Assembly (NCBI RefSeq): GCF_053078305.1
Contig: NZ_CP166879.1
Length of the DNA stretch: 64,000 nt
Reading direction: 5' to 3' (one strand)
In this document: in pieces, positions 31,420-53,812 of the stretch
Numbering within the stretch: the stretch's first letter is position 1
Layout: the number at the start of each line of letters is the position of its first letter
Translations under genes and position numbers: made by a program
The notes under the pieces: model-generated
Told to the model about the DNA's origin: nothing
Seen by the model: only the letters and a program-made list of their open reading frames with translations
The model's database searches: none

Positions 31420-34400
31420 ATGCAGGTCAGCAGAAGGCAGTTCTTTAAGATCTGCGCTGGCGGTATGGCAGGCACCACGGCAGCGGCACTGGGTTTTGCA
31501 CCCAGCGTAGCACTCGCGGAAACCCGGCAGTATAAACTGCTGCGCACCCGCGAAACCCGTAATACCTGCACCTATTGTTCCGTAGGCTGTGGGCTGTTGA
31601 TGTACAGCCTCGGTGACGGAGCAAAAAACGCCAAAGCATCTATCTTCCATATCGAAGGCGATCCGGATCACCCGGTCAACCGCGGTGCACTTTGTCCGAA
31701 AGGCGCTGGCCTGGTGGATTTCATCCACTCCGAAAGCCGTCTGAAGTTTCCGGAATACCGTGCGCCAGGTTCTGATAAATGGCAGCAAATCAGTTGGGAA
31801 GAGGCGTTTGATCGCATCGCCAAACTGATGAAAGAAGACCGCGATGCTAACTACATTGCGCAAAACGCCGAAGGCGTGACTGTTAACCGCTGGCTCTCCA
31901 CCGGGATGCTGTGCGCTTCCGCGTCGAGTAACGAAACCGGCTATTTAACGCAAAAATTCTCCCGCGCGCTGGGTATGCTCGCGGTCGACAACCAGGCGCG
32001 TGTCTGACACGGACCAACGGTAGCAAGTCTTGCTCCAACATTTGGTCGCGGTGCGATGACCAACCACTGGGTCGACATCAAGAACGCCAACCTCGTCGTG
32101 GTGATGGGCGGTAACGCCGCTGAAGCTCACCCGGTCGGGTTCCGCTGGGCGATGGAAGCCAAAATTCACAATGGCGCGAAGCTGATTGTGATCGATCCTC
32201 GCTTTACGCGTACGGCTGCGGTGGCTGACTACTATGCCCCTATTCGTTCCGGTACTGACATTGCTTTCCTGTCAGGCGTATTGCTGTACCTGCTGAACAA
32301 TGAAAAATTCAACCGCGAATACACCGAAGCCTATACCAACGCCAGCCTGATCGTGCGTGAGGATTACGGCTTTGAAGATGGCCTGTTCACCGGCTACGAC
32401 GCGGAAAAACGCAAGTACGATAAATCCTCCTGGACTTACGAACTGGACGAAAACGGCTTCGCCAAACGCGATACCACGCTGCAACATCCGCGCTGCGTGT
32501 GGAACTTGCTGAAACAGCACGTTTCCCGCTACACGCCAGATGTGGTTGAAAACATCTGTGGTACGCCAAAAGACGCGTTCCTGAAAGTCTGCGAATACAT
32601 CGCAGAAACCAGTGCTCACGATAAAACTGCCTCGTTCCTGTATGCCCTCGGCTGGACGCAACACTCCGTTGGTGCGCAAAACATTCGTACGATGGCGATG
32701 ATCCAGCTGCTGCTCGGTAACATGGGGATGGCTGGCGGCGGCGTTAACGCCCTGCGCGGTCACTCCAATATTCAGGGGCTGACGGACCTGGGGCTGCTGT
32801 CGCAGAGCCTGCCAGGTTACATGACGCTGCCAAGCGAGAAGCAGACCGATCTGCAAACCTACCTTACCGCCAACACGCCAAAACCGCTGCTGGAAGGCCA
32901 GGTAAACTACTGGGGCAACTACCCGAAATTCTTCGTCTCCATGATGAAGGCCTTCTTTGGTGATAAAGCGACGGCGGAAAATAGCTGGGGCTTTGACTGG
33001 TTGCCGAAGTGGGATAAAGGCTACGACGTCCTGCAATACTTCGAGATGATGAAAGAGGGCAAGGTCAATGGCTATATCTGCCAGGGCTTTAACCCTGTTG
33101 CCTCATTCCCGAACAAAAACAAAGTGATCGGTTGTCTGTCGAAACTGAAGTTCCTCGTCACCATCGACCCGCTGAACACTGAAACCTCTAACTTCTGGCA
33201 GAACCACGGTGAGCTGAACGAAGTTGACTCGTCGAAGATCCAGACCGAAGTGTTCCGTCTGCCATCGACCTGCTTCGCGGAAGAGAACGGTTCTATCGTT
33301 AACTCAGGTCGCTGGTTACAGTGGCACTGGAAAGGTGCGGACGCCCCGGGGATTGCGCTGACTGACGGCGAGATCCTCTCCGGTATCTTCCTGCGCTTGC
33401 GCAAGATGTATGCCGAACAGGGTGGCGCGAACCCGGACCAGGTGCTGAACATGACCTGGAACTACGCCATTCCGCATGAGCCGAAGTCGGAAGAAGTAGC
33501 GATGGAGAGCAACGGTAAGGCGCTGGCCGATATTACCGATCCGGCAACCGGTGCGGTTATCGTCAAGAAAGGCCAACAACTTAGCTCGTTCGCCCAATTG
33601 CGCGATGACGGTACAACCTCCTGTGGCTGCTGGATTTTCGCCGGTAGCTGGACGCCGGAAGGCAACCAGATGGCACGCCGTGATAACGCCGATCCGTCTG
33701 GCCTCGGTAACACGCTGGGCTGGGCATGGGCATGGCCGCTTAACCGCCGCATTCTGTATAACCGCGCCTCCGCAGATCCGCAGGGTAACCCGTGGGATCC
33801 GAAGCGTCAGTTGCTGAAATGGGACGGCACTAAGTGGACCGGCTGGGATATTCCGGACTACAGCGCAGCGCCTCCGGGTAGCGGCGTCGGGCCGTTTATC
33901 ATGCAGCAGGAAGGCATGGGGCGTCTGTTTGCCCTCGATAAGATGGCGGAAGGTCCGTTCCCGGAACACTACGAGCCGTTTGAAACGCCGCTGGGAACTA
34001 ACCCGCTGCATCCAAACGTTATCTCGAACCCGGCTGCACGTATCTTTAAAGACGATGCCGAAGCATTGGGTAAAGCCGATAAGTTCCCGTATGTCGGAAC
34101 CACCTATCGTCTGACCGAGCACTTCCACTACTGGACCAAACACGCGCTGTTGAACGCGATTTTGCAGCCAGAGCAGTTTGTGGAAATCGGGGAGTCGCTG
34201 GCGAATAAACTTGGCATTGCCCAGGGCGATACCGTGAAAGTCTCCTCCAACCGTGGCTATATCAAAGCCAAAGCGGTGGTGACCAAACGTATTCGCACGC
34301 TGAAAGCGAACGGCAAAGATATCGATACCATCGGTATTCCGATTCACTGGGGCTATGAAGGCGTAGCTAAAAAAGGCTTTATTGCCAATACGTTAACGCC

Positions 34401-34470
34401 ATTCGTTGGTGATGCAAACACGCAGACGCCGGAGTTTAAGTCCTTCCTTGTGAATGTGGAAAAGGTGTAA
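31420..34470 (+). CDS. fdoG: Formate dehydrogenase-O major subunit (selenocysteine-containing)
   Basis: Two same-frame track ORFs (31420..32007 and 32056..34470) joined across in-frame TGA at 32005..32007, read as Sec196; Tat signal RRQFFK; total 1016 aa. Confidence 0.95.
32005..32050 (+). promoter_or_regulatory. Selenocysteine UGA codon plus downstream SECIS region
   Basis: In-frame UGA followed by a region with stem potential (agcaag..cttgct); bacterial SECIS lies immediately 3' of the UGA. Confidence 0.6.
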
Positions 34471-47705: not shown

Positions 47706-48716
47706 TCATTCCGGCGCAAATTGCAGCATGACCTTTATGGAGTCATTTTGCTGCGCGCGTTCGAATGCCGCCGCTGCATCCTCAATGGCAAATAAATCGG
47801 TAACCAGTTCACTGGTATCAAACCGCCCATCCGCCAGCCATTCGATAACAGCATCGAAATCTTCAGGGATGTACATGCCAGAGTTGAGCAAGTCACGCTC
47901 GAAACGTTGCATCATCGGTAATGGTATTTCACGCGGCCCACTTGGTACGCCCATGCACACGACGGTGCCTCCGGCATATACACGGGTACATGCATCGTTA
48001 AGCGTGGCCTGCGCTGCAACGACATCAATCGCCCCCGTAAATCGCACATCTGCGGCCAGCTCACCTGGTGCCCAAACTTCTGCTGCGCCCAGCTTTAACG
48101 CCAGCGCGCGTTTGGCAGCGTCAGGTTCAATCACGGTAATCTTACCTGCCCCCATAATGCGCAGTGCCTGCACGATGGATAAGCCTATCGTTCCGGCACC
48201 AATCACCAGTACGCTTTCCAGAGAAGCTTTCGGCATTCGGTTAACGCAGTGACGGGCACAAGCCGCCGGTTCGGCAAAGGCCAACACTTTTAGCGGTAAA
48301 GAGGCTGGTGCGACATGGCAATTACGCGCAGGAACAATGTGTTGTGAGCGAGCAAAGCCCGGTGCGCGAAAACCAGCAACCTGCGGTGGTTCACAAAGAT
48401 TAAAACGTCCTGCTTTGCAGGCTCGGCATTCCATGCAAGCCATGATGGGATCGACCACAACATGATCGCCCGGCTGTACATTTTTAACGTCGCTGCCAAC
48501 TTCCGTAACGCGCGCTGCAATTTAATGACCGGGGACGACAGGTGGTTTGGCAAACGGATGACCGCCTTTCAGAACATGCAGATCCGAACCGCATATCCCA
48601 TGGAACACAGGCGCAATCCGCACTTCGTGCGGTTTAAGTTCCTGGTGTGGTACTTCAACATATTGAGTGGTGACTTTCCCAATATCTGAAAATAAAACCT
48701 GGGTAATTTTATCCAT
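47706..48716 (-). pseudogene. Zn-dependent alcohol/polyol dehydrogenase (MDR family) interrupted by in-frame TAA
   Basis: N-terminal 64 codons (..PVVPGH) then TAA at 48522..48524, then the same frame continues IAARVTEVG...CMECRACKAGRFNLC (structural-zinc Cys cluster); stop sits where the GHE motif Glu is expected. Confidence 0.7.
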
Positions 48717-48748
48717 TGTTATTCTCCAGAATCGATATCCATAGGGGA

Positions 48749-49636
48749 TTAGCGTTGCGCGATACCTTCATCGACAATTTCTGCCAACCGTTGTAAACGA
48801 GGAACAGAGACATCGCGCAGCATAATTTGTGGATCTTGTGCACCAACAACCGACGCCCAAACCGCTCGTCCAGCCAGGAAGCCTGACGCACCACCTTTCA
48901 TGGCAATACTTACTGCACGGCCAAAAATATCGGCATCAACGCCAGAAGAAAGAATTACCCACGGCATCTTCATCTGATCGTTAAGTTGCTGACAGGCGGC
49001 AAGTAAGGTTTTTTCATCGCCTTTGCCCCCTAATGGCATCTCGGCTTTGTAAAGATCAGCCTCTGTTCCACCAAGCTCTGCGGCGGCGGCAACAATGGCG
49101 CTTTCACGATCAAAGTCCCAACCGCGACGAGGTGGACGCACCACAGGTTCAATAATGCTAACCAGCCCGGCACTACGGCAGCGACGAACAAATTTATCAA
49201 CCATTGCCAGACGTTCCTCTGCGGGTTCATCTTCACGCCAGAGTACAAGTAATTTCATTGCCTTAGCCCCCATTTCACGGGCTTTATGCGGGTCGACGGA
49301 CATATCTATTTCAACGCTATCAACCGGGATGCCATTACCTGGGATAAAAAGATCGGCAGCGACAATCAGGCCGCAAGAATTAGCAACAGCGCCCTGCTCG
49401 ACTATTTGCTCAAGACAAAATTGTTTATCCGCCAGAACGGCAGAAGCATAAGGAGAAAGGATTCGGGTCGCGGCAACTTTAAAATCGGTGAGTACACTGT
49501 CGGCGATGGGTTTTGGCTGCCCTGCTGCCGCAAACATCAAGCGCATGGCCTCACGCTGATCGACAGCTAACATGGCAAATCCACCACCTGGGCGGGAGAT
49601 ATCTTTCAGCGTAAATGGGGTGAAGTGGGATGACAT
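48749..49636 (-). CDS. yihT: Class I sugar-phosphate aldolase (LacD/YihT-like)
   Basis: 295-aa ORF with AMLAVDQR motif; orthology to K-12 yihT inferred, not confirmed. Confidence 0.7.
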
Positions 49637-49660
49637 AGAAACTCCTGTTAATAGATAAAA

Positions 49661-50539
49661 TTAAAGACCAGCCTGCTGGCGAACCTGATTTAGCAGGGCA
49701 CTCCAGTCCTGCCGCCCTTTGCCGTCTTGACTTGCTGCAGCGTAATAACTTTCTGCTGCAATCCCCATATTGAGCGGTGCCCCCGTCTCCCGAGCGACGT
49801 CAACTGCAATACGCAGATCTTTCAACGCCAGATCCACCATGAAGGCGGGTGAAAGATCGCCTTTCAGCACTTTGCCAGGCCAGGTGGTCGTAAAATGTCC
49901 TTTCCCTGCTGCCGTACCACTCATCACCTTAATTGCGACATCAAGATTTAATCCCAGTGACTCACATAACACAGCGGCCTCGGAGGACAGCGCATTAAGC
50001 GCAATGCTCATATAGTTGTTAATTAGCTTCACGCGGATCCCCATTCCAGGGCCGCCAGCCTCGACCAGCTCATTACCCATGCACATGAGAATCGGGCGTG
50101 CACGTGCAATCTGCTCATCAGTGCCACCCGCTAAAATCAGCAATGTGCCATCAATCGCATTCACGGACGTTCTGCCCACGGGGGCGTCCATCATACTGAT
50201 GCCTTTTTCTTGTAACTCCCGTATTAATGCATCGGTCTGTAAGGGATGAATAGTCGACATATCAATCAATAACGCGTCAGATGAAACAGCCTCACAGACG
50301 CCTTTTTCCCCCAACAGAACCTGTCGAACAATGTCACCATTGGGAAGCATAGTGATGATAAATTCAGCGCCTGCTGCTGCTTCCGCTGGGGTTTGTGCCG
50401 CAGTGGCCCCCTGCGTAACTAGCGCATCGACGGCCAGTGCATTGACATCAAATACCTGCAATGAATGCCCTTTATGCAATAGATTGTTAGCCATTGGGCT
50501 ACCCATCTGCCCCAGCCCGAGAAATGCAATGGTTGCCAT
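49661..50539 (-). CDS. yihU: 3-hydroxyisobutyrate dehydrogenase-family reductase (YihU-like)
   Basis: 292 aa from [13 protein letters not shown] (Rossmann GxGxxG); track ORF has a 67-codon upstream extension. Confidence 0.7.
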
Positions 50540-50711
50540 GAATACTCTCCTGTCTGACATTGACAAAATAATGACAATTGAAAATTCGTTTTCGTCTGTT
50601 TTTGAGCATATTTGTAATTTATGTTCAAAAACACGACATACATCACTAATTTGATCATTTGTGTCATTTAAATTGACCAAAGACGACAAAATTAAACAGG
50701 ACAAGACAAAT

Positions 50712-51608
50712 ATGACCAGAATTGCATGCGTGGGTATCACAGTTCAGGACAGGATTTATTCTTTGCCCACTCTGCCGGAGGGCGGCGGGAAATATCAGGC
50801 AAATCATTATCTTGAGATTGGTGGCGGCCCGGCAGCAACAGCCGCTGTTGCAATCGCAAGGCTTGGCGTGGAAGTTGATTTCATCGGTCGCGTCGGCGAT
50901 GACAGTTGTGGAAATACCTTACTTGCAGAACTTGAGGGTTGGGGCGTCAATACAGCATTTTGCCGCCGATATCCTAACGCCCGTTCGTCGCAATCAGCGA
51001 TCCTCGTTGATCAGCATGGCGAACGGATTATCGTTAATTATCCAAGTCCTGATCTCGGTACTGATGCCGAATGGTTAGAAGCGATCGATTTCTCTCGTTA
51101 TGATCTGATTCTGGCCGATGTTCGCTGGCATAGCGGTACTGAAAAAGCATTCTCGCTAGCGCGCCTTGCGGGTGTGACAACGCTTTTAGACGCCGATATG
51201 ACACCGCAGGATATTTCTCCACTTGTCGCGCTTGCCGATCACGCCGTGTTCTCAACGCCAGGGCTGAAACGCATGACTGGCCTGCAGTCACCTGAAGAAG
51301 GTTTGTTCCAGGCAACGACACAAACAGCAGGTAAAGTGTATGTTACGCTGGGTTCTGAAGGATCGTTGTGGATTGAAGATGGTCATTTGTGTCAACAGGA
51401 GGCATTTTCTGTCAATGTGGTTGATACCACTGGAGCAGGCGATGTTTTTCACGGCGCACTCGCGGTAGCGTTGGCAGAAAAAATGCCAACAAAAGAGGCT
51501 ATTCGTTTTGCCAGTGCGGTTGCCGCGATGAAATGTACCCAGCCTGGCGGTCGGGCCGGCATTCCTAATCGTGAGCAAACCGAATCATTTTTGTCACTTT
51601 ATGCGTAA
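50712..51608 (+). CDS. yihV: pfkB-family sugar kinase (YihV-like sulfofructose kinase family)
   Basis: 298 aa from [24 protein letters not shown] ribokinase-family motif. Confidence 0.8.
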
Positions 51609-51647
51609 AATGGTAAACATCTACCGAGGAGGGGCAAGGGAGTATTC

Positions 51648-52436
51648 ATGAGTATCATCGAAGTGACAGGTAATCCACGCCATGACCAACTCGTTCATCT
51701 AATCGCAGAACGCGGTTATATGAATATTGAAGAACTGGCACAACTGCTGGATGTTTCAACGCAAACCGTGCGCCGGGATATCCGAAAACTCAGTGAGCAG
51801 GGCTTGATCACCCGTCATCATGGAGGGGCCGGGCGCGTCTCCAGCGTCATGAATACCGCTTTTGAGCAACGGGAACTTTCGCTCACCGCCGAGAAACGGG
51901 CGATCGCTGAGGCAGTCGCCGATTACCTTCCCGAACGCTGTACCGTCTTTATCACCATCGGTACAACCGTAGAAGCCGTTGCCAGGGCATTACTCAACCG
52001 GCGTGATTTACGCATTATCACTAACAGCCTACGTGTGGCACAGATTCTTTATAAGAATCAGGATATTGAAGTGATGGTGCCGGGAGGCACTTTACGCGCT
52101 CATAACGGCGGGATTATCGGCCCAGGAGCCGTGGATTTTATTGAAGGCTTCCGCGCAGATTATTTAATCACCAGTATAGGTGCCATTGAACATGACGGCA
52201 CCCTACTGGAATTTGATGTAAATGAAGCGTTAGTCGCGAGAACGATGATTAAACATGCGCGGAATACATTGTTAGTGGCCGATCATACGAAGTTTGCCGC
52301 GTCTGCTGCCGTTTCAATTGGCAATGCACGGAATGTCAGGGCTTTTTTTACTGATGCCCCGCCTCCCAATTCTTTCTGCCAGTTGTTAAGTGAAGAGAAT
52401 GTTGAACTGGTGGTTGCCGAGCAGGAAGTTTCCTGA
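51648..52436 (+). CDS. yihW: DeoR-family transcriptional regulator (YihW/CsqR-like)
   Basis: 261-aa ORF; N-terminal HTH, C-terminal DeoR sugar-binding domain. Confidence 0.8.
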   Translation: MSIIEVTGNPRHDQLVHLIAERGYMNIEELAQLLDVSTQTVRRDIRKLSEQGLITRHHGGAGRVSSVMNTAFEQRELSLTAEKRAIAEAVADYLPERCTVFITIGTTVEAVARALLNRRDLRIITNSLRVAQILYKNQDIEVMVPGGTLRAHNGGIIGPGAVDFIEGFRADYLITSIGAIEHDGTLLEFDVNEALVARTMIKHARNTLLVADHTKFAASAAVSIGNARNVRAFFTDAPPPNSFCQLLSEENVELVVAEQEVS

Positions 52437-52452
52437 AATTGAAACTTCGAAA

Positions 52453-52483
52453 AATCCGCTGGGGATTCAGCGGATTTTATTTT
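52453..52483 (+). terminator. Intrinsic terminator after yihW
   Basis: Hairpin aatccgctg-gggattc-agcggatt followed by tttatttt. Confidence 0.65.
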
Positions 52484-52541
52484 GCCGGATGCGGCCTACG
52501 GTTGATACGGTTTTCGTTGGCCGGATTAAGCACATCCGGCC
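52484..52541. repeat. REP element
   Basis: gccggatgcggcctac ... ggccggattaagcacatccggcc. Confidence 0.75.
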
Positions 52542-52546
52542 ATTAA

Positions 52547-53812
52547 TTAAGCTTCAGCCGCCAGCATCTCTTTCTTACGTTGGCTAATACGCTTAACCAG
52601 CATTACGGAAACCACCGCACCACAGAATGCGAAGCAGGCCATAATGCCAAACACGATTTTGTAGCCAATAATCCCCGGATTTAAATCCAGAATGTAGCCA
52701 TACAGACTGAAGCAGAACATCGCCGGGGCGTAACCAATAAAGCTCCCCAACGCCATCGCCGCGCCTGTTTTATTTTCAGCAATTTTTGCTTCGCCGATAG
52801 GTGCAAAAAATACGGCTCGCTGTGTAAAGACTATCGCGCCAAAGCCCAGCGTACATGCCATCCCTAAATAGACCGGCATACTTTCGTGCGGCAGCATAAT
52901 CAACAGTACGAGCGCAGCGGTACTGATGATAAAGGTGTAGCATAGATATTTACTCGGCGATTTCAGGATCTTATCTGAAATCATGCCACCAATCGGTCCA
53001 CCAATCATTTTCAGACAGTATTGGTTAATGATGCCGTAAGCCCCCACCAGCGCAACGGGCAATAGATAGATGTTTTTCAGGAATGGAATGAAGAATGTCA
53101 GGCCACAGTAAACCGCGTAAACGAAGAAGACGTTGAAAGCGATAAGCCAGATGGTTTTGTCTCTCAGCACCGAGGTCATACTGGTGTTTTGCGATGCTCC
53201 GTCTTCTTTTTTCACCTCAACGGACGGTGCCTCTTCTTTGTCATTCAGGACAAAGAAAATAATAATGCCTACGGCAATCACAATAAGGGAATAGAACCAG
53301 ATGCCTGCTTTAAAACCTAATAAGCCACTGCCAAACCAGGTAAATACTGCCAACGCAGAAAATGCCACCACGGTATCGACAATGCCACGCCCTGTTTCGA
53401 AGAAGCCAAACAACCGACCTTGTTGTTCGCTATTGCCCAATCGACTTACCGACTTGAGCAAGACCGGCCAGTTCATCATGTCGCAAGTAACGCCAAATAG
53501 CGCCCAGACAAAGAGGATGCCCCAATACCCCGGCATTGTCGTCAAATAAACACCCAGTAATCCTGTCGCAATGAGTGAGAATGACATGGTGTATCTGCGC
53601 GGTAGTTTATCGGCAAAATAAATAGACAGAAAAAAGCCCACTGTGGTAACAAATGAGTTTACCGACATAGCATTACCAATTTGACCATTGGTCAAATGGA
53701 AATATTCCTGCATCGGGATATAAAACGCATCTTTCAGCGACGGTAATTTATAAATTGTACCGCCACACAGTGTTAATAGACTAAATAACGCCCATTTCTT
53801 TTTCGTGAGCAT
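52547..53812 (-). CDS. yihN: MFS transporter YihN
   Basis: 421-aa polytopic ORF, length matches YihN. Confidence 0.88.
   Translation of the reverse strand: MLTKKKWALFSLLTLCGGTIYKLPSLKDAFYIPMQEYFHLTNGQIGNAMSVNSFVTTVGFFLSIYFADKLPRRYTMSFSLIATGLLGVYLTTMPGYWGILFVWALFGVTCDMMNWPVLLKSVSRLGNSEQQGRLFGFFETGRGIVDTVVAFSALAVFTWFGSGLLGFKAGIWFYSLIVIAVGIIIFFVLNDKEEAPSVEVKKEDGASQNTSMTSVLRDKTIWLIAFNVFFVYAVYCGLTFFIPFLKNIYLLPVALVGAYGIINQYCLKMIGGPIGGMISDKILKSPSKYLCYTFIISTAALVLLIMLPHESMPVYLGMACTLGFGAIVFTQRAVFFAPIGEAKIAENKTGAAMALGSFIGYAPAMFCFSLYGYILDLNPGIIGYKIVFGIMACFAFCGAVVSVMLVKRISQRKKEMLAAEA

Follow-up and report, generated by a model that had tools for sequence, protein, structure and literature searches.

An in-frame TAA at the zinc-ligand glutamate codon of a dehydrogenase gene in the short yih cassette of Escherichia coli is very probably a recent, clone-specific nonsense mutation

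Introduction

When a reading frame is broken by one stop codon and continues undamaged behind it, the stop may be a recent nonsense mutation, an error of sequencing or assembly, or a codon that is read through. All three were put forward in the original prediction for a gene in a window of 64,000 nucleotides (contig NZ_CP166879.1 of RefSeq assembly GCF_053078305.1), by which we mean the whole stretch of DNA that was analysed. The window is a part of the Escherichia coli chromosome with the gene order glpX to hemN, and the gene, which belongs to the Zn-dependent (MDR, polyol-dehydrogenase-like) dehydrogenases, lies there within a variant of the yih cassette. Here we ask which of these explanations applies and what it means for the cassette.

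The yih cassette of strain K-12, which serves sulfoquinovose (sulfo-EMP), is the long form, ompL-yihOPQRSTUVW. A 'short form', yihTUVW, was described by Kaznadzey et al. 2025 (PMC12608037) in strains that are without yihO, P, Q, R and S, and no induction by sulfoquinovose was reported there for strain Nissle 1917. In the literature the locus is viewed as a truncated, possibly functionless sulfoquinovose cassette. A literature search of the available library turned up no study devoted to the dehydrogenase or to the eight-gene cassette in its entirety.

Results

A single base difference interrupts the dehydrogenase gene at codon 65

Translation of the window gave a minus-strand frame of 336 codons (47706..48716), from the ATG at 48716 to the natural stop at 47706..47708. 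The frame begins with MDKITQ, proceeds to KPPVVPGH, meets TAA at 48524..48522 (codon 65) and then continues in the same frame as IAARVTEVGSDVKNVQPGDHVVVDPIMACMECRACKAGRFNLC up to the natural stop. The in-frame TAA, its coordinates and strand and the peptide strings given in the original prediction all agree with this translation. Two residual open reading frames flank the stop. The N-terminal one has 64 codons (48525..48716 by translation; 48522..48716 in the list of open reading frames), and the C-terminal one (47706..48458) has 250 codons when counted from the GTG at 48458 or 245 when counted from the ATG at 48443.

The gene was then aligned to intact E. coli alleles from strains PS10-3 and S88. 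In these two strains and in strain D8 it is annotated as 'zinc-dependent alcohol dehydrogenase' of 336 aa (WP_000357967.1 or WP_000357981.1). Both halves of the window gene align end to end with the gene of WP_000357967.1 (336 aa) at 99.8% nucleotide identity, and in every relative there is one gene, so the possibility that the two halves belong to separate genes is refuted. At codon 65 the intact alleles have GAA, and the only difference there is G193T, which turns GAA into TAA (E65*); this is the single change that had been proposed. The nearest intact allele, that of PS10-3, differs from the window gene at two positions, G193T and T115C. Over the 816 nt 3' of the stop (gene nt 196-1011) the identity to PS10-3 is complete. 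The stop takes away 272 of the 336 residues. It is premature relative to full-length, syntenic orthologs, as in a nonsense pseudogene.

The stop falls on an invariant zinc-ligand position

The intact ortholog matches the Pfam domains ADH_N (PF08240, 2.9e-26) and ADH_zinc_N (PF00107, 2.9e-17). Its best PDB match is 4ilk, RspB of E. coli, and its nearest relatives are RspB, threonine dehydrogenase (Tdh, 2dq4) and sorbitol dehydrogenase (1pl6 and 1e3j). With these MDR dehydrogenases it shares both Pfam domains, the Cys/His-Glu/Glu catalytic-zinc residues, the C-x2-C-x2-C-x7-C lobe and the GxGxxG motif. Unlike the characterised relatives, it stays below the cutoff of every NCBIfam equivalog, and the copy in the window ends at codon 65. 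The best NCBIfam match was PRK10083 (RspB-like), with 165 bits against a cutoff of 376, and no named equivalog (RspB, Tdh, IdnD, GatD, IolM) could be assigned, all NCBIfam matches being far under their curated cutoffs.

In an alignment with 27 homologs, down to 35% identity, C42, H64, E65 and E149 are invariant in all 27, and so are the structural-zinc residues C94, C97, C100 and C108 and the glycines G173, G175 and G178. The structural-zinc lobe and the GxGxxG motif are still encoded in the window, 3' of the stop, and the set of catalytic-zinc residues is incomplete, codon 65 being TAA. The original prediction was right in reading this as one MDR-family gene in which the Glu of GHE is replaced by the stop; the motif that had been given in its generic form GDRV actually reads GDHV. 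In the polyol-dehydrogenase branch of the MDR family the catalytic zinc is bound directly by the Glu that follows the His (Cys44, His69 and Glu70 in human sorbitol dehydrogenase), so that the stop falls on an essential residue. A missense change of the Glu65 codon would probably inactivate the enzyme as well. Judged from its sequence, the window gene is a member of the MDR family by descent which is predicted to be incapable of encoding a functional enzyme.

The same TAA is present in separate sequence data

If the TAA were an error of sequencing or assembly, the true base at 48524 would be G and the gene would be intact. It is in line with such an error that the difference amounts to only one base and that the T allele occurs in no complete RefSeq genome. 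However, an identical TAA was found in three sets of separately assembled contigs, which differ from the window elsewhere. The contig from GCA_018683495.1 (NCBI; L004 and L013) differs from the window at 1 of 20,195 bases, namely at the T115C site; that from Logan SRR30307805 (L014) at 2 of 12,545 bases; and that from ENA ERZ28521506 (L018), with a coverage of about 1.5, at 11 of 2,092 bases. The contig types of GCA_018683495.1 and of Logan SRR30307805 each represent several samples. Gene calls in GCA_018683495.1 and in the Logan and ENA contigs include a 64-aa product with Y39, and in public assemblies the 245-aa C-terminal fragment and a 64-aa N-terminal one are listed as two genes. The TAA-carrying assemblies may be independent isolates or one strain that was sequenced repeatedly; either way, random sequencing error is excluded by the presence of the TAA in separate sequence data.

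The quality of the surrounding sequence points in the same direction. All of the 58 other genes that were compared with strain D8 are free of gaps or other disruption, and only fdoG has a further internal stop, a TGA that the reference D8 has as well. Moreover, a substitution within non-repetitive sequence is atypical of an assembly artefact. Taken together, these results make an error of sequencing or assembly, as the original prediction had allowed, extremely unlikely. With 58 of 58 other genes intact, a Shigella-like, pseudogene-rich background was likewise rejected for this region.

The T allele marks a narrow clone

Among 5426 complete RefSeq genomes of E. coli, 1327 contain a match to the dehydrogenase gene with its flanks (95-99.8% identity), and a 16-kb piece around the gene is 99.4% identical to strain D8. 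The frequency of the allele was determined with a pair of 31-mers centred on the T or the G, because a megablast search with a 61-mer is blind to B2-type haplotypes, in which neighbouring SNPs break the 28-base seed. The 31-mer with T was found in 0 of the 5426 genomes, whereas the 31-mer with G was found at 100% identity in 1314, so that the GAA site is retained in 1314 of the 1327 locus-bearing genomes. Neither the GTDB representative genomes nor the JGI metagenomes yielded a match to a 46-mer that includes the TAA. From the contrast between 0 genomes with T and 1314 with G we infer that the TAA allele marks a narrow clone, of which the window is a further-derived member with a private Tyr39 to His change.

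At the protein level, the intact 336-aa protein was found on at least 1000 contigs and the 64-aa fragment on 13, some of which are contig-end pieces of the intact allele. The many 64-aa matches at contig ends were rejected as extra carriers of the stop, since these contigs end at gene nt 192, 193 or 194 with G or GA; being contig-end fragments of the intact allele, they were also rejected as breaks of the assembly graph at a G/T polymorphism. Only contigs of the L013, L014 and L018 types were counted as stop carriers. By exact look-up in the protein collection, the 64-aa peptide was found in its Y39 version only and was absent with H39, and the 250-aa restart product had no match, with either V or M as its first residue. 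Several other split versions of the gene were all left out as evidence of recurrent inactivation. Those in the metagenome scaffolds L005, L008 and L009 are due to runs of N from scaffolding and not to mutations, and L006 and L010 look like error-prone contigs. H31, the alignment of which is one base short of the query, is not a pseudogene; its annotated start lies 8 nt downstream (333 aa).

Apart from the private change T115C (48602, minus strand), which emerged from base-by-base comparison, the window and GCA_018683495.1 are identical over 20,195 bases. The change is nonsynonymous, lies 78 nt upstream of the stop and affects the residue three before the catalytic Cys42. All 27 homologs have a hydrophobic or aromatic residue at position 39 (Y, F, L, M, V or I), and none of them has His. 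By gene length alone, the chance that a lone SNP lands in the dehydrogenase gene is about 5%. The change from Tyr39 to His, a single event, is consistent with drift after inactivation, as far as can be judged from the comparison.

No signal for readthrough of the TAA was found

Readthrough or suppression, as a further alternative, would mean that an ochre suppressor or leaky termination lets ribosomes pass the TAA and that the full-length enzyme is made. The frame downstream of the stop is fully open and undecayed, as would be expected in that case, but a very recent mutation predicts the same. A recoded stop should be conserved, and this one is not: the site is GAA in 1314 genomes, and all 27 homologs have Glu. 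TAA is neither a selenocysteine nor a pyrrolysine codon, and termination at UAA is efficient in E. coli. Neither a cis element nor a dedicated tRNA was detected, there being no Rfam family at gathering score in 43000..52600 and no tRNA gene within the window. The classical ochre suppressors of E. coli insert Gln, Lys or Tyr rather than Glu, and would thus place another residue where a Glu is invariant in the present alignment and binds zinc in the sorbitol-dehydrogenase subfamily. The readthrough alternative of the original prediction, with the stop absent from all 1314 genomes that have a comparable site and with no recoding signal, is hardly conceivable.

The window has only one other in-frame stop. 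In fdoG (31420..34470, plus strand), for the alpha subunit of formate dehydrogenase-O, a TGA stands between open reading frames of 195 and 804 codons; it is the known selenocysteine codon of this gene.

The interrupted gene lies in an otherwise intact short yih cassette

The cassette in the window consists of a DeoR regulator and a sugar kinase on one strand and of yihU, aldolase, Zn-dependent dehydrogenase, two MFS transporters and aldose 1-epimerase on the other. On the minus strand, the yihU-like gene for a beta-hydroxyacid dehydrogenase (annotated as sulfolactaldehyde 3-reductase; 49661..50539) is the first gene of the presumed operon. It is followed by the gene for a DeoC/LacD-type, YihT-like aldolase (48749..49636), which lies immediately upstream of the dehydrogenase gene and is 100% identical to D8. 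The first MFS transporter gene (46203..47636) starts 69 nt downstream of the dehydrogenase gene, and the second MFS transporter gene (44755..46104) and the aldose 1-epimerase gene (43878..44765), the last of the cassette, come after it. The genes for the YihV-like PfkB sugar kinase (50712..51608) and the YihW-like DeoR/GlpR regulator (51648..52436) are transcribed divergently, on the plus strand. All seven of these genes are intact.

The gap of 98 nt between the two MFS genes contains a perfect palindrome of 34 bases (46168..46201; TTAATGCGCATCGGCTTAAGCCGATGCGCATTAA), with a stem of 15 bp and a loop of 4 bases, which could be an intercistronic hairpin, an attenuator or a protein-binding site. 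Outside the cassette, between fabY and yiiE, there is an intact open reading frame of 614 codons (38623..40467, minus strand) with a GC content of 37-42% against about 50% around it. It had no NCBIfam or PADLOC match, and no Pfam match is recorded for the 604-aa product that is called there in GCA_018683495.1 (L013). In strain D8 its counterpart is interrupted by a transposase insertion. This open reading frame is probably a horizontally acquired islet.

The window cassette resembles the long yih cassette in its site, between yihN and yihX, and in having a homologous DeoR regulator, PfkB kinase, aldolase and YihU-like reductase. It is of the 'short' type of Nissle 1917 and many B2 strains. It adds the Zn-dependent dehydrogenase, two Sugar_tr/MFS_1 transporters and the aldose 1-epimerase, which are outside the description of the cassette in PMC12608037. 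Unlike the sulfo-EMP cassette, it is without the YihS isomerase and the YihQ sulfoquinovosidase, and in the RefSeq annotation of the locus in PS10-3, S88 and D8 the sulfo-EMP set of YihQ, YihS and YihO/YihP was not found. Between the short and the long form, yihU has about 69% nucleotide identity. A yihU with at least 95% identity to that of the window occurs in 1326 genomes and one with 60-80% in 4024. On these sequence counts, one and the same site of the E. coli chromosome holds either the short or the long cassette type, but not both.

Selection for the loss of the gene is very unlikely

Selection, as opposed to neutral decay, might have favoured the loss of function in the clone, possibly along with the silencing of the downstream transporters by polarity. 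Three observations would suit such selection. First, an essential residue is lost, early in the gene. Secondly, the lone SNP between the window and its nearest relative is also in the dehydrogenase gene. Thirdly, the same gene and cassette have been damaged independently in another E. coli, GCA_900449855.1 (L003). There, the dehydrogenase gene has a +G frameshift at nt 245, the aldolase gene is interrupted by an IS element (HTH_Tnp_1/rve) and the first MFS gene is broken into two parts; this pattern of decay fits dispensability as well as selection. On the other hand, one nonsense allele in a narrow clone and one decayed cassette elsewhere are what the neutral loss of an accessory pathway predicts, and GAA is kept in nearly all complete genomes that bear the locus (1314/1327). 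A convergent recurrence of E65* was not found, the 64-aa contig-end fragments carrying an intact G or GA. Selected loss is thus very unlikely.

The same gene set occurs in other taxa

A unit made of a DeoR regulator, PfkB kinase, aldolase, Zn-dependent dehydrogenase, MFS transporter, YihU-like dehydrogenase, second MFS transporter and aldose epimerase was also found outside E. coli. In Rhodopseudomonas palustris CP000301 (L031) the gene set does not differ from that of E. coli. Vibrio rhodolitus (L032) has a class II aldolase instead of the DeoC-type one, and in Streptomyces sp. RFCAC02 (L033) the epimerase is missing. The conservation of the gene set across three phyla argues for a distinct pathway of which the dehydrogenase is an integral step. 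The short yih cassette may be a complete and ancient eight-gene pathway rather than a truncated sulfoquinovose operon, with the dehydrogenase in place of YihS and a sugar or sulfosugar as the substrate; we consider the chances of this reading to be evenly balanced.

Discussion

The TAA at 48522..48524 is very probably a genuine, recent and clone-specific nonsense mutation (G193T, Glu65 to stop) in the gene for the dehydrogenase of the 'short' variant of the yih cassette. The complete identity of the sequence behind the stop to an intact allele, together with the intact state of the other cassette genes, indicates that the inactivation is recent. The first of the alternatives in the original prediction, a recent nonsense pseudogene, is accordingly the one that was borne out, by the presence of the allele in separate assemblies, by the undecayed 816 nt after the stop and by the intactness of the rest of the cassette.

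Several effects would be expected from this mutation. Translation from the native start would end after 64 residues, and since a peptide of this length is missing the Rossmann domain altogether, the structural-zinc lobe and the greater part of the catalytic domain, no enzyme should be made. Efficient re-initiation seems unlikely from the sequence, and a restart product would be without the catalytic zinc ligands Cys42, His64 and Glu65; no Shine-Dalgarno-like sequence was found before the in-frame restart codons 87, 92 and 95. The stop would also leave 816 nt of untranslated mRNA, in which C outnumbers G between about gene nt 326 and 480. Such an untranslated, C-over-G-rich stretch may allow Rho-dependent polarity on the two downstream MFS genes and the epimerase gene. 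The first MFS gene, a candidate for this polarity, has its own AAGGA ribosome-binding site. As the other genes of the cassette are intact, the mutation strikes this one step alone, and for lack of the enzyme the pathway of the cassette would be blocked in the clone.

In most respects the allele is like the ordinary strain-specific nonsense pseudogenes of E. coli and Shigella, which likewise have a premature stop from a single base in a syntenic gene that is undamaged elsewhere, a restriction to one clone, intact neighbours and no recoding signal. Compared with these, the only particular feature here is the position of the stop, at the codon of the zinc-ligand Glu in GHE. It is a further example of a recent nonsense pseudogene confined to a clone, here in an accessory sugar operon of E. 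coli, and the annotation flag 'internal stop' is apt for it. Its practical value is that of a lineage marker, and of a caution that the strain is probably without the function of the cassette.

The context of the stop is more useful than the stop itself, since the E65* clone is a natural knock-out of a conserved, uncharacterised sugar-catabolic cassette. If the short cassette is indeed a complete pathway of its own, this clone would be a ready-made, isogenic-like mutant and may serve as a natural control in the search for the substrate.
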